From NCBI GenBank assembly GCA_964016885.1, contig OZ024752.1:50220001-50284000 (forward strand): DNA of 64,000 nt. Reading direction: 5' to 3'. The position numbers and the translations under genes were made by a program. Positions 24,551 through 51,117 of the stretch are shown here, piece after piece; within the stretch, counting starts at the first letter, position 1, and every line of letters begins with the position of its first letter. The DNA comes from Eledone cirrhosa. Its lineage: Eukaryota. The notes beneath the pieces were generated by a model, which worked only from the letters and a program-made list of their open reading frames with translations, ran no database searches and was not told the DNA's origin.

Positions 24551-24597
24551 CTGCTGTACACATGTATTTCAGAATTATTATTCATCATCAGCAGCAA
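24551..24597 (-). ncRNA. Type I hammerhead ribozyme motif
   Basis: Minus strand reads ttgctg CTGATGA t-gaat-aata-attc-t GAAA tacatgtg TA cagcag. Stem I 6 bp, stem II gaat/attc, near-palindromic stem III, GUA triplet. Confidence 0.75.
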
Positions 24598-24685
24598 ACA
24601 TTTGGTTTAGCTGGGGATATGTTAAGCTATGATCAAGTCACATCTACTGCAAGACCAGTGTAAGACTGCTGTACACATGTATTTC

Positions 24686-24980
24686 TCATTATCGCTGCCA
24701 TGTTCTGTCTCCAAGAGACGAGTGTCTGTCCTTAGGATATCAACATATGGTGGATGGGTGCTACACAAGAATGTTGAGGATGGCTCTAAACAAACATTAA
24801 TCAGAATACACTGAGGATGAAGAACTCAGAGCTGTACGGGAGCCTCCCAAAAGTCAGCTCGAAAGTAACACAGTGAAGACTGAGGTTAGCTGGACATGCT
24901 CACTGACGTCCAGAGTTGACACTGCACTCAGTGCCCTGCATGGAGACACACGAAGAGGAAGACCGAGGTTAAGATATGTA
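24686..24980. mobile_element. RTE-like LINE fragment with internal inversion
   Basis: The + part reads VDGCYTRMLRMALN...ELYGSLPKVSSKV...LRLAGH...RRGRPRLRYV. Its continuation (YVDILRTD...) lies on the - strand at 24686-24750. An uninverted relative is at 62580-62745 (-). Confidence 0.7.
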
Positions 24981-25019
24981 TACACACATATATACCGATT
25001 TACACTCATATATGTGAAG

Positions 25020-25262
25020 AAGGCACATGGATTAGTGGTGAGAGCATCGGGCTTTCAATCGAAAGGTTGTGAGTTCAATTCTCGGACTGGGTGATGTGTT
25101 GTTTCCTTGAGCAAGACACTTTATTTCACATTGCTCCAGTTTACTCAGTTGTAGAAATGAGATGATAGGGACTGGGGTCCCTATCATTAAATTAGCCAAG
25201 ACACCTCCAACGAGATATACCTTGGAGGAGGCCAGCTAAACCTGCATTGGTGTGAGCTGTCA
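25020..25262 (+). mobile_element. CORE-type tRNA SINE
   Basis: Same head and CORE as 57680. Reverse copies at ~6625-6866 and ~13440-13560. Confidence 0.75.
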
Positions 25263-26739
25263 CACACACACACACACACACACAACACACACAGACATAT
25301 ATATACTGATGCAAACAATATATACCTACACAAACATAAAATACCCTTATTCAGAATTACATTATATTAGTGTCACTGCTAATTAATTCCTTTATAAATG
25401 TAATCAATTTATGATTAATATTGAAAAGACAGGATATAAAAATGATATTGTGTTAGTATATATTTCTCTTGAAGACATTTCCAAGTGGTCTTTCAGATTA
25501 TGTCACAAACAAAAGGACAGTAAGTATGTTCATACAGACTCATAAACAACAACCTTTCAGGAAATGTCAAGAAATTGCTAAGTTTATCCTAGTTGTGTAA
25601 AATGCTAGAAATACGAAATATATATATATATATATATATTTATATGTATTTATTTGTATATGTATATATATATATATATGTGTGTACATAGTTATACAAA
25701 CTAAGTATATACATAAGTTTGTGTAAATCTAATGTTTAGTGAACATACATAATATATGACACTCACAAATATGTTTATAGTATATCCTGTCCACATAGAT
25801 ATAATGTGTGTATATATATATATATATATATATATATATATACATACACTTATATGTGTGTATGTGTGCAATTGCAACAATATATACGTATATATGTGTT
25901 TGTGTGCAACTATATTTTATATATATATATATACATATATATATGTGTGTGTGTGAATGCATTTATATATATATATATGTGTGTGTGTTTGTATGTGTGT
26001 GTTTGTGTGTGTGTGAAGGTATTGTTGAAATCATCAATGAAGAATCGGTGAGTTTTTGACCTCCACTTGACTTATGCAACTGACCTTTAATAAAATGTCA
26101 CCACAGTTCCAAGTTCTATCAGTAAACAACGCTTGTGTATATAGTAAGTTATTGGGGAAAAAATAAAACTTACTTCACAATTGCTCTTATATATATATTT
26201 AACCCTCCTCCATCCTTCTCTAACTACACCAGCTCTCATTTTAGTTTAGTTAGCAAGGTTGGGGGGGGGGTATTTTAGTTGTAAGTAACAGTTTCTAATT
26301 AAGGTACAAAGTCAGAAAATGACTTATGACTTATGAGATGGTGGTCTCATAGCTTTGTCTTAATTAAGGGTTTCTAATTAAGATACAAGGTCATCAAATG
26401 ACTTATGAGCTGATAGTCCCATAGCTTTGCCTCAATTAATGGTTTCTAATTATGACACAAGGGCTAATAAGGTGCCATGTTTAATTAAGGCACAAGGTCT
26501 AATTAAGACCCAATGGTTTCTAATTAAGGCACAAGCTCAACAAATGACTAATGAGCCAGTAATCCCATAGCTTATCTACTTAGCCCTTTAAATAAATCAA
26601 TATATTAATATAGATTATCTCAGAAATTATTAAAACAATAATGATTTCTAATTTAGGCACTAAGTTAGCAAATTAAGAGTGACATCCCACCCCCAGTACT
26701 TGTCTGGTACTTCATTTTATCAACTTTGAAGGAATCTTA

Positions 26740-47077: not shown

Positions 47078-48444
47078 ATTATTATTATTATTATTATTAT
47101 TATTATTATTATTATTATTATTATTATTATTATTATTATATTAAAATCTCCAAATGGTTTAAATGCACAACAAGTCTCCAATACTGAAATGGCCAAAACA
47201 ATGTCAGCAGAAGGGCACCTAAGAGTTATGGCCTGGAAGAAGCCTGAACCCCATAGAGTGTAAAAGATTAAGAGCCAAAACACTCACATGAGGGACCTTC
47301 TTCTCTGTAGACATCCTGCTGTTAAGCTCCTCCAGAGAGAGTGTTTCTTACCACTATAATGCCTCTTGACACATACATATACACACTAAGATGTGTGTGT
47401 GTGTGTATTTATATATATACTTATATATATATATATATATGTACAAGGGATAACAAAATATCGTTATAGGTAATCCAGTTAAAGGTTATGAATAATTTGT
47501 ATTGTGGATAGTTTTAGCGTACGGCGTTGGTTGACTCAACAAGAGGTTCACGTAAATAACGAGTTTATGATTTCTCTTGTATTCCTATGTAAGTTAATCG
47601 GGGAGTAATAAAATTGGAAAAGTGGAGAATAACATGGGCAACAGTACAAAAAAGGGATTTATTTACAGTAAGACTGTAAATAAATCCCTTTTTTGTACTG
47701 TTGACCATGTTATTCTTCACTTTTTCAATTATATATATATATATATATATATATACATACATATCTGTGTGTTTATGTGTGTATGTATATATGTATATAT
47801 ATATATATATATATATACATATACATACATATCTGTGTGTTTATGTGTGTATGTATATATGTATATATATATATACATACATATCTGTGTGTTTATGTGT
47901 GTATGTATATATGTATATATATATATATATACATACATATCTGCGTGTTTATGTGTGTATGTATATATGTATATATATATATATATATATATATATATAT
48001 ATATATATATATATATATATATATACATACATATCTGTGGGTTTATGTGTGTATGTATATATGTATATATATATATATATATATATATATATATACATAC
48101 ATATCTGTGTGTTTATGTGTGTATGTATATATGTATATATATATATATATATATATATATATATATATATATATATAGTAAAAAATTGAACGGGAACAAA
48201 ACAGAGAGGCAGTACGAACAAAGGTTTATTAGTTTCACGCTCTTGAGAGTGGGGTGGTGGTGGTGGGGAACGACGTTTCGGGCATAATATATATATATAT
48301 ATATATGCATATGCATACACACACACACATATATATATATATATATTTAGAGAGAGAAAGAGAGAGAGCGAGAGAGACTCGCATAGACCATTTATTTATT
48401 ATAAATAGATAAACACAGATATACGCATTCATACTTGTGTGCAT

Positions 48445-48940
48445 GTGTGTCTGTGTGTGTCTGTGTGTGTCTGTGTGTGTCTGTGTGTGTCTGTGTGTGT
48501 CTGTGTGTGTCTGTGTGTGTCTGTGTGTGTCTGGTGTGTCTGTGTGTGTCTGTGTGTGTCTGTGTGTGTCTGTGTGTGTCTGTGTGTGTCTGTGTGTGTC
48601 TGTGTGTGTCTGTGTGTGTCTGTGTGTGTCTGTGTGTGTCTGTGTGTGTCTGTGTGTGTCTGTGTGTGTCTGTGTGTGTCTGTGTGTGTCTGTGTGTGTC
48701 TGTGTGTGTCTGTGTGTGTCTGTGTGTGTCTGTGTGTGTCTGTGTGTGTCTGTGTGTGTCTGGTGTGTCTGTGTGTGTCTGTGTGTGTCTGTGTGTGTCT
48801 GTGTGTGTCTGTGTGTGTCTGTGTGTGTCTGTGTGTGTCTGTGTGTGTCTGTGTGTGTCTGTGTGTGTCTGTGTGTGTCTGTGTGTGTCTGTGTGTGTCT
48901 GTGTGTGTCTGTGTGTGTCTGTGTGTGTCTGGTGTGTGTG
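48445..48940. repeat. (GTGTGTGTCT)n decamer repeat
   Basis: About 49 nearly perfect copies. Confidence 0.95.
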
Positions 48941-49345
48941 TCAGTGTGTATGTTTGCACACTAACATACCTCTGTTTGTATATATTACACGAACAACCAA
49001 ACCTTCCCAGTAAATAAAGGAAACTGTAAAAATTATGTATTTTAAACCTGACACAAACAAACACAGACAGAAATGTGGACAGGAGGAAAAGTGCATATAT
49101 ATATATATATATATATATATATATATATATATATTTGATATATATATATATATATATATATATATATATATATATATATATCAAATGTATATATATATAT
49201 ATATATATATATATATATATATATATATATATATATATATATATATATATATATACATTTGATATATATTATATATATATATATTTTTTTTTGTATATAT
49301 ATATATATTTATTTATATATATATAATATATATTTAATATAGATG

Positions 49346-49396
49346 AGATTCTACAGGACTAGAACTGTTTCATTCATTAGAAATCATCAGGAATCT
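49346..49396 (-). ncRNA. Type I hammerhead motif in the left arm of a palindrome
   Basis: Minus strand reads agattc CTGATGA t-ttc-taat-gaa-t GAAA cag-ttctagtc-ctg TA gaatct. The mirror copy on + (49397-49445) has TTGATGA. Confidence 0.7.
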
Positions 49397-51117
49397 GATT
49401 CTTGATGATTTCTAATGAATGAAACAGTTCTAGTCCTGTAGAATCTCATCTATATTAAAACTGTTATACTCTGCTATGTATTGAGTACCTTACTTACTGT
49501 GGTTACCTCCGATTCAACCCGGAATAACGTACATAATATATATTTATATATATATACTATATATTTATATATATATTTATATATATATATTTTTTTTTTT
49601 TGTATATATATATATATATATATATTTATTTATATATATATACTATATATTTATATATATATTTATATATATATATTTTTTTTTGTATATATATATATAT
49701 TATATTTATTTATATATATATAATATATATTTATATATATATACTATATATTTATATATATATATATATATTTTTTGTATATATATATATATATATTTAA
49801 TTATATATATATAATATATATTTATATATATATTTACTATATATTTATATATATATTTATATATATATATACATTTATATATATATATATATATATTTTT
49901 TTTTTTTTTTTTTTTAAACCAAAATGTGTCCAAATTATATTTATTTATTTATTTATTTATTTATGTGTAAACACAATGTCAACTTTCTGAGTTAAGAAAT
50001 AGGACACAGTTTAATTTTTCATTAGTTATTTCACTAAGAAACGTTCAACATTTAGGGTGGGTGGCGTTGAAGGGGGTGGGGTGGGGTGGGGTAATTCTTT
50101 TTTTATTATTACTTTGTGGTGCAAATTTATTAAATTTTCAAAAAGATCAAATAATGAAAAAAAAAAAAAAAATAATAATAATAATAATAATAATAATAAT
50201 GATAATGATGATAATAATAATATTTAAATTTGATGTATTATGAAATCAATGTAACCAGATGACAATAACACAGTGAAGTGCCTAACTTGTCATAAATCTT
50301 ATGTCAAAAAAAGTGGATTTAAATAAATAAAACTGTGTTGAATTCTGAAGTCAGTGTGTGTATATATATGTGTGTGTGTGTGTGTGTGAATGTGGTGCGA
50401 ATGTTGTGTGTGTGTGAGCGCTGTGTGTGTGATGTTGTGTGTGTGTGTGTGTATGAATGTTGGGTGTCATTTTTAGTATATATAGTAGTATACATACACA
50501 CTACTGAAACAGGGATAATACTGAAGATGAACATCATAAAACACATACACACACACACATACACACACACAGACAGACACACACACACACACAGATAGAT
50601 ACACACACACACAGATAGATACTCACACGCACACACACAGAGATAGAGAGAGGTAGGTATGTTGATAGATAGATAGATAGACTGACAAACAACCAGACAG
50701 ACAGACACGGGTAAACAGAGAGAGAGAGAGAGAGAGAGAGAGAGACAGACAGAGAGAGAGAGAGACAGGGAGAGAGAGAGACAGACAGGGAGAGAGAGAG
50801 AGAGACAGGGAGAGAGAGAGACAGACAGAGAGAGAGAGAGACAGACAGACACAGGGAGAGAGAGAGAGAGAGAGAGAGAGACAGAGAGAAGTAGTAGTGT
50901 TAACTCTTTTGACCAAATTGTCTCAAGTTTGGTGATAGAAAACTGATTATTGTAAAAGTGTTTTTTATTTAAATTAAAACCTTCCAACATAATTTGATAC
51001 AAAAACGTTTTGTTAAGTTATACAACAAATATCACCTTAATAATGATACAATTAATAATTTTAATAAATTCTTCATTAATTAATTGAAATATAGTGTAGT
51101 TAGATATGCATTGACAA

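Follow-up and report, generated by a model that had tools for sequence, protein, structure and literature searches.

A 64-kb stretch of the Eledone cirrhosa genome (GenBank assembly GCA_964016885.1, contig OZ024752.1, positions 50,220,001 to 50,284,000 of the forward strand; hereafter the window) carries six type I hammerhead ribozyme folds, each within a short repeat unit. We number the units 1–6 in window order (folds 24551, 38674, 39533, 42010, 45001 and 49346). Our reading is that units 2, 3 and 6 are short ends of coding Penelope-like elements (PLEs), likely of the Hydra clade, that units 4 and 5 are likely related ends, that these five units inserted independently at TA repeats, and that the positions at which copies of three of the families repeatedly begin correspond to the 5′ ends of the element RNAs. 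We give this reading as a whole a probability of about 0.7.

Hammerhead folds in the window

A type I descriptor (in the order stem I, CUGANGA, stem II, GAAA, stem III, UH, stem I) recovered exactly six folds among the 37 CUGANGA cores of the window, with core starts at 24591(−), 38725(−), 39538(+), 42013(+), 45056(−) and 49390(−). These are the six complete folds listed in an earlier note on this DNA, and the shuffling control proposed there bore them out: dinucleotide-shuffled sequences (3 × 100) gave a mean of 0.01–0.06 folds and never more than one. The reversed and the complemented window gave none. All type I features (CUGANGA and GAAA cores, UH site, stems I–III) were present in 6/6 folds. 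Stem III is palindromic in five of them, and that of unit 6 (49390) consists of 4 bp with an 8-nt loop. AATAAA overlaps stem I or directly follows its 3′ side in four of the six, in agreement with the note. Its claim of a (TA)n preference also holds, since five of the six units have a (TA)5+ run within 8 nt of an end, against a background of 5.7% of positions within 12 nt of such a run; the nearest such run to unit 1 is at least 929 nt away. A relationship between units 2 and 5 (79% identity over 144 bp) reduces the six folds to five families, the minimum that had been claimed.

Rfam models, of the kind that the note recommended as a check, did not confirm the folds: the window scan yielded no match at gathering score, and units 3 and 4 tested singly yielded no hammerhead match at E ≤ 10. 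The Rfam output otherwise was microsatellite-driven microRNA and small nucleolar RNA noise, as judged in one window scan from 150 of its 448 rows. In seven hand-picked variants of the unit 6 group, 91/91 stem cells were paired and two stem I pairs had changed on both sides. These rows are related, so the shuffle control for them is weak, and covariation elsewhere was judged by eye; the unit 6 pattern lends modest support to the hammerhead fold. When the monomers were folded, the A15.1–U16.1 pair had a probability of 0.00–0.21, and units 5 and 6 were predicted to form long hairpins that span the motif or its flanks.

Three further CUGANGA cores, at 3975(−), 59070(−) and 24811(+), are accompanied by a partial stem II and GAAA-like sequence and fail the descriptor; they are probably decayed hammerheads. 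The genomic loci examined (L001–L246) contained 140 distinct folds, among them other families with palindromic stem III (ACTAGT, ATGCGCAT, ACCATGGT and ACGCGT), and their stem II regions reached about 50 nt.

Parent elements

We searched the 3.0-Gb assembly for copies and parents of the units. Units 3 and 6 are 98–100% identical to the ends of full-length elements located elsewhere in the genome that encode a reverse transcriptase (RT) and a GIY-YIG endonuclease. Unit 3 matches the 3′ pseudo-long terminal repeat (pLTR) of two 4.3-kb elements, L081 and L082, at 99.5%. Both are laid out as pLTR, tail, open reading frame (ORF), 3′ untranslated region (UTR) and pLTR; L082 has an 856-aa open frame with its N-terminal part in another frame, and L081 contains stops. 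The parent of unit 6, L139, is 6.0 kb long. Its 712-aa ORF is open and begins 180 nt downstream of the 5′ edge of the first fold; a 3.6-kb 3′ UTR follows, and another fold precedes (TA)n. L140 is a second full-length copy. For unit 2, longer copies (L098, L100, L101 and L103) contain a GIY-YIG reading frame, the C-terminal endonuclease end, about 1.1–1.3 kb upstream. Units 2, 3 and 6 are thus colinear with ORF-bearing elements at 94–100% identity, which upholds the proposed link to Penelope-like pLTR hammerheads. The description of the units as an ORF-less population fails for most of them: these three are ends of coding elements, unit 5 is a relative of unit 2, and a retrozyme-like tandem period is seen for unit 1 only. 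The window itself holds no PLE ORF detectable by tblastn with the two parent ORFs, as had been stated.

The RT and GIY-YIG domains were assigned by motifs (YRDD and YIG). RWK is present in L081 and RWR in L139; DKT occurs in L081, L082 and L139; and GxKF/Y is absent from L082 and L139. The parents carry the CxCX5C linker, and CxxC and CxH around the late E and N, with no CCHH. No CxxC lies between the GIY-like and YIG motifs, where L139 has two wider-spaced cysteines. A single ORF with RT followed by a C-terminal GIY-YIG domain, flanked by pLTRs, was found in L081, L082, L139 and L140; for unit 2 this extends to the endonuclease end only. The features given for the Hydra clade include RWK, DKT, CxCX5C, CxxC, CxH and the lack of GxKF/Y, and the supplement of the same paper lists Hydra-1_Obim from Octopus bimaculoides with a (TA)n preference (PMC8557442). 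The parents of units 2, 3 and 6 therefore likely belong to the Hydra clade, judging by these motifs; an assignment to Neptune was dropped in their favour. (TA)4+ occurred within 260 nt 3′ of the search pattern in 28/30 unit 6, 27/30 unit 3 and 29/30 unit 4 loci, a loose measure that has no matched background.

Unit 5 is tied to coding elements by its 79% identity to unit 2 alone. No parent ORF was found for it in three long stretches, and the 1.1 kb of upstream sequence common to its two long copies is non-coding. For unit 4, 11 long stretches gave no parent ORF, and copies share up to about 1.75 kb upstream; unit 1 had no ORF-bearing parent among the long copies examined. Many stubs have pieces of further PLE-type RT and GIY-YIG frames nearby that by eye do not resemble Hydra (L084, L144, L003, L015, L016 and L231), and different families are often nested in one TA tract.

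Anatomy of the units

Unit 2 (38632..39283, minus strand; fold 38672–38733) is a 652-bp, 5′-truncated 3′ end of its PLE family; the unit ends in (TA)n and has no tail. Unit 3 (39417..39638, plus strand; fold 39533–39587) is a solo pLTR stub, with TA on both sides, left by a young Hydra-like PLE; it spans from the 5′ hot spot of its family (described below) to the short 3′ end, and the family has 4,697 exact 29-mer matches genome-wide. Unit 4 (41904..42100, plus strand; fold 42010–42054) is a randomly 5′-truncated end of a PLE-like element whose family shows an optional tail, inverted arms and 206 exact 28-mer matches. In this family 13 of 16 distinct arms have CCGATGA in the core; unit 4 itself, at 42013, has the canonical but rarer form, perhaps arisen by CpG decay. 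Unit 5 (44868..45200, minus strand; about 333 bp) has TA on both sides and consists of a forward arm, which runs from the hot spot of its family (45137) through the fold (45000–45064) and a tail of about 90 bp, preceded by a short inverted arm (45136–45204, plus strand). Unit 6 (49333..49534) is a head-to-head hairpin of two pLTR arms, one on each strand, that meet at the 5′ edge of stem I. Its minus arm (49395–49333) holds the intact fold (49346–49396), and its plus arm (49397–49534) a second fold with a private C3U change and a tail of about 70 bp. This family has 3,276 exact 31-mer matches. Of the two properties that the note proposed to check genome-wide, copy number and linkage to Penelope ORFs, units 3 and 6 thus show both, with over 3,000 exact matches per family, and the match count of unit 4 is lower; the unit size of about 150–300 bp given there for most folds is too small for units 2 and 5.

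Unit 1 (24480..24686, minus strand; fold 24551–24597) is an old repeat with a 115-bp tandem duplication whose upstream copy has no intact first core. Its relatives are 73–81% identical over about 110 bp, and 3 of 14 other loci show a tandem period of 277–311 bp; sequence downstream of some copies matches sequence upstream of others, a permutation. It is the only unit with a retrozyme-like tandem period and is a candidate decayed retrozyme.

On their 3′ side the copies end at one of two points, which include or exclude a tail of about 70–100 bp; in the parents, the tail sequence comes after the upstream pLTR. Insertions often consist of head-to-head arms, as units 5 and 6 do in the window, and the junctions between arms vary from copy to copy. 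Tandem and inverted arms with an optional tail are a published PLE pattern (PMC8557442; PMC3846280). We rejected the unit 6 hairpin as one fixed mobile element: its junction was shared by 14/14 other best-scoring loci, a sample biased by the query, and loci picked by genome order vary in junction. One locus, L145 (C1:83679791-83691712), contains 12 tandem copies with a period of about 1.08 kb, and each of the three copies that were read holds the promoter-like region, hammerhead and tail of unit 6.

Fixed 5′ ends

For units 3, 4 and 6, 5′ ends were sampled from the first 30 matches, in genome order, to a pattern 3′ of the site. In the unit 6 family, 13/30 arms (10/23 insertions) begin 0–7 nt from the 5′ edge of stem I, and the next ends lie at least 177 nt upstream. 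In the unit 3 family, 13/30 arms begin in one 7-nt bin about 117 nt above stem I, nine of them at one base. Both pile-ups are extreme against a uniform null, with the reservation that paired arms are not independent. Unit 4, which serves as a control, showed no pile-up (at most 3/30 arms per 8-nt bin). An exact pattern was too specific for unit 5 (five matches), and arms were picked by best BLAST score instead: 39 of 41 distinct arms (44 rows, three duplicates dropped) lacked the 25-nt upstream match present in two long copies. The hot spots are also where units 3, 5 and 6 begin in the window, and where the full-length L139 begins. No unit 3 arm (0/30) starts at the cleavage site, in a sample whose pattern lies wholly 3′ of it; the two unit 3 samples overlap and are not independent. 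Of the 82 listed places of unit 6, 29 do not match the 12 bases upstream exactly, a count that takes in point mutants, and 12 come from one array.

Two other counts were set aside. Genome-wide 31-mer counts spanning (4,602) and below (3,276) the unit 6 site were uninformative, the two tracking different variants and the first showing a strand excess (3,164 forward vs 1,438 reverse). Nine apparent unit 6 ends at 157 proved to be an indel artefact of the reference, as the arms extend further, and the L117 value was likewise discarded.

The hot spots lie upstream of the hammerhead cleavage site and below motifs resembling CCAAT, TATA and initiator elements, which we compared with the consensus promoter forms. 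Above the unit 6 site are TATAAATA at −30, CCAAT at −84 and a YYANWYY match; above the unit 5 site, TATAATTA at −28 and CCAAT at −41; and above the unit 3 site, CCAAT at −52 and an initiator-like TCA. This arrangement suggests that each hot spot is the start site, and hence the 5′ end, of the element RNA, which is a prediction from sequence. In the public run X1, the summed contig depth for unit 6 was about 2e5 above the site, 1–2e6 over the fold and tail, and 1e3 beyond the tail, a rise of about tenfold at the site; X1 comprises contigs of unspecified kind, maybe the assembly's own source, and this crude depth includes related subfamilies and is silent on expression and RNA ends. Contig joints in X1 run from about position 1562 back to 1488 (L105:1486-1564), which, with the strand excess above, suggests a tandem array of about 77 bp holding the unit 6 hammerhead, a retrozyme-like satellite, somewhere in the genome. 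L139 has no upstream promoter region of its own and sits directly after a TA run; as a speculation, the run might act as a stand-in TATA box.

Proposed mechanism and alternatives

Under our reading, the GIY-YIG nuclease of the element would nick (TA)n, and the RT would have two alternative start points immediately 3′ of the hammerhead, one yielding copies that include the tail and the other copies that lack it. The head-to-head arms would arise when both DNA strands act as primers. With an RNA ordered as R (hammerhead), tail, ORF, UTR, promoter and R, priming beside the 5′ hammerhead would yield a run-off copy of only 65–270 nt, and in the unit 3, 5 and 6 families copying would very often halt at the RNA 5′ end. 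Because the hot spot lies upstream of the cleavage site, the templates would not have been self-cleaved.

A number of points weigh against this reading. The unit 3 site lacks a TATA box, and its first bases, ATAT, mean that annealing to the TA target could create the hot spot; two of 30 unit 3 arms end 4–7 nt 3′ of the cleavage site. The unit 6 site, with its pyrimidine run and CAG, can also be read as a 3′ splice site, and the intron of Drosophila virilis Penelope is described as ending at such a site (PMC4209133). The Penelope element of that species is also described as having a TATA-less internal promoter (PMC2377424). Two full-length unit 3 elements, L081 and L082, start inside the pLTR/R and not at the site. 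The selection of unit 5 arms by BLAST score favours inverted copies. At 4.3 and 6.0 kb, the parents exceed the "generally <3 kb" of Hydra, a typical and not a strict size; their ORFs were missed by Pfam and PDB sequence searches, and the Hydra placement is by motifs. Units 4 and 5 have no directly linked ORF, and unit 1 does not fit the account of PLE stubs.

The strongest competitor, which we nevertheless consider unlikely, keeps the PLE stubs and attributes their fixed 5′ ends to RT pausing or to short pairing with the target or the partner arm. It fits the ATAT start of unit 3, able to anneal to (TA)n, and the position of the unit 6 site where a helix ends; published palindromes at inverted junctions have moreover been read as self-priming (PMC3846280). 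The starts of units 5 and 6 (GGGAG and GATTC), however, are not TA-like, promoter-like motifs stand at the expected distances, and unit 4 shows no hot spot despite sharing the target and having a hammerhead of its own.

Less probable still, the short units could be self-propagating non-autonomous elements, retrozymes or similar to short interspersed nuclear elements, that arise from short masters and borrow PLE enzymes. Such an origin would suit the predominance of short arms in unit 5 (39/41) and the lack of an ORF in its 1.1 kb of shared upstream sequence and in the roughly 1.75 kb of unit 4, as well as the tandem period and permutation of unit 1 and the ~77-bp joint of unit 6 in X1. It sits poorly with the colinearity of units 2, 3 and 6 with ORF-bearing elements and with junctions that vary from copy to copy, and 1–2 kb without an ORF is not unusual beside the 3.6-kb 3′ UTR of the unit 6 parent. 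We regard it as highly improbable that the host keeps the hammerheads to cut or regulate the pre-mRNA of the kinesin gene in which they lie. Four of the six folds are on its sense strand, but the fold density equals that of the neighbouring 132 kb, the copies are young and have thousands of near-identical counterparts, and the monomers pair poorly at A15.1–U16.1 (units 5 and 6 folding as long hairpins).

The preferred account of PLE ends with RNA 5′ ends at the hot spots can be carried further, tentatively, to an LTR-like build that we think possible but doubtful: a U3 promoter, an R containing the hammerhead and a U5 tail, the stubs being trapped strong-stop copies, run off the capped end of the RNA, and the pLTR being rebuilt by a homology-guided jump of complementary DNA from the 5′ R to the 3′ R. 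The five full-length 5′ ends that were read fit this build, two lying inside R, one at the site and two having U3 and a single R. Besides the jump, read-through out of tandem copies or 3′-tailed elements (e.g. L082) explains the same junctions, and the two are not separable here. If the U3–R–U5 build is true, the genome would record the start site of each family and show uncleaved RNA to be the template, which bears on how pLTRs are regenerated.

Host gene and local background

The window contains two kinesin motor-domain exons on the minus strand, at 43087–43320 (Pfam PF00225, E 2.7e-24; probable GC splice donor) and 36170–36535 (E 1.1e-38). The preceding, upstream motor exon is about 159 kb from the window start, and the intron above exon 43087–43320 is about 115 kb long. 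Since motor exons flank them, units 2–6 are intronic, as had been claimed for all six. Unit 1 would be intronic too if a coiled-coil-like probable stalk exon starting at 12141, recognised by eye and with no Pfam match, belongs to the gene, which we take to be kinesin-2/KIF17. Relative to the gene, four folds are sense and two antisense. The same descriptor found 12 folds in the next 132 kb and one in the preceding 20 kb, an overall density of about one per 11 kb (216 kb examined). The neighbouring 132 kb is equally dense, so the gene shows no enrichment, and the presence of several folds in it reflects the local background. The folds and stubs are probably inert passengers of the introns, given the low A15.1–U16.1 pair probability, the predicted long hairpins of units 5 and 6, and the minority core allele of unit 4.

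In the same intron, about 0.7–1.4 kb past the window end (L087:686-1421), hammerheads of the unit 5 and unit 6 families again form head-to-head pairs. Among other repeats, related 48–49-bp tandem arrays occupy four places in the window (10285–11855, 17828–17962, 33666–34050 and 36599–36916), a 61-bp array occurs twice (22106–22474 and 46332–46640) adjoining 3′ ends that by eye resemble long interspersed nuclear elements, and a 60-bp array lies at 28102–28762.

Comparison with known systems

The six folds are ordinary for this genome, being remnants of known retrotransposons, and their value is mechanistic. Hammerhead-bearing Hydra PLEs with (TA)n targets, also from Octopus, are already published, and a transcription start inside the pLTR and TATA- and initiator-like motifs there are already in print. 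Families that are young and number thousands of copies, that include an open ORF (L139) and whose 5′ and 3′ ends are sharply defined offer material for testing run-off, template-jump and circular-RNA models.

Among retrozymes, the animal non-LTR type described by Cervera and de la Pena (2020, PMC7229834) likewise has a type I hammerhead in a short non-coding repeat, and the tandem period of the unit 1 family, about 280–310 bp, resembles theirs. Units 2–6, in contrast, are not tandem monomers, and three are colinear with ORF-bearing elements; arrays in the retrozyme format (170–400-nt tandem units, each with a hammerhead and no ORF) were absent for units 4 and 5 from the loci read. A PLE origin of animal retrozymes is the subject of a preprint by Li et al. 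(bioRxiv 10.64898/2026.07.22.740005).

Minimal hammerheads, whether single or on opposite strands, were attributed to truncated PLEs by Cervera and De la Pena, who found their activity to be low and dependent on dimers (PMC4209133). The folds here share with theirs the short stem I, long stem II and palindromic stem III, and occur mostly as single motifs, with opposite-strand pairs 100–700 bp apart. They differ in that the 4-bp stem III and loop of unit 6 could close in a monomer and in that the unit 4 family has mostly C at core position 4.

The closest relatives appear to be the C-terminal endonuclease-bearing (EN+) PLEs of the Hydra clade, including Hydra-1_Obim, as presented by Craig et al. 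(2021, PMC8557442). They show the same order of RT then GIY-YIG, the same motifs, a pLTR hammerhead, a (TA)n target, and tandem or inverted arms with an optional tail; the printed Hydra-1_Obim protein looks homologous to the parents here, by eye only. The parents differ from the elements presented there in their size (4.3 and 6.0 kb) and long 3′ UTRs, and the copies in their tails of about 70–100 bp vs 30–40 and in the thousands of near-identical stubs.

For Poseidon of Anolis, Frangieh et al. (2024, PMC11167929) report in vitro that RT starts at two internal sites delimiting the tail, that AT-rich DNA is cut on both strands, and that hammerhead cleavage is not needed for insertion. Poseidon belongs to another clade and its ORF begins inside the hammerhead, unlike that of L139, which begins beyond the fold. 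Two RT starts bounding the tail, cuts on both strands of AT-rich DNA and uncleaved RNA as the main template are nevertheless what the copies in Eledone cirrhosa, read from their sequence, would also imply.

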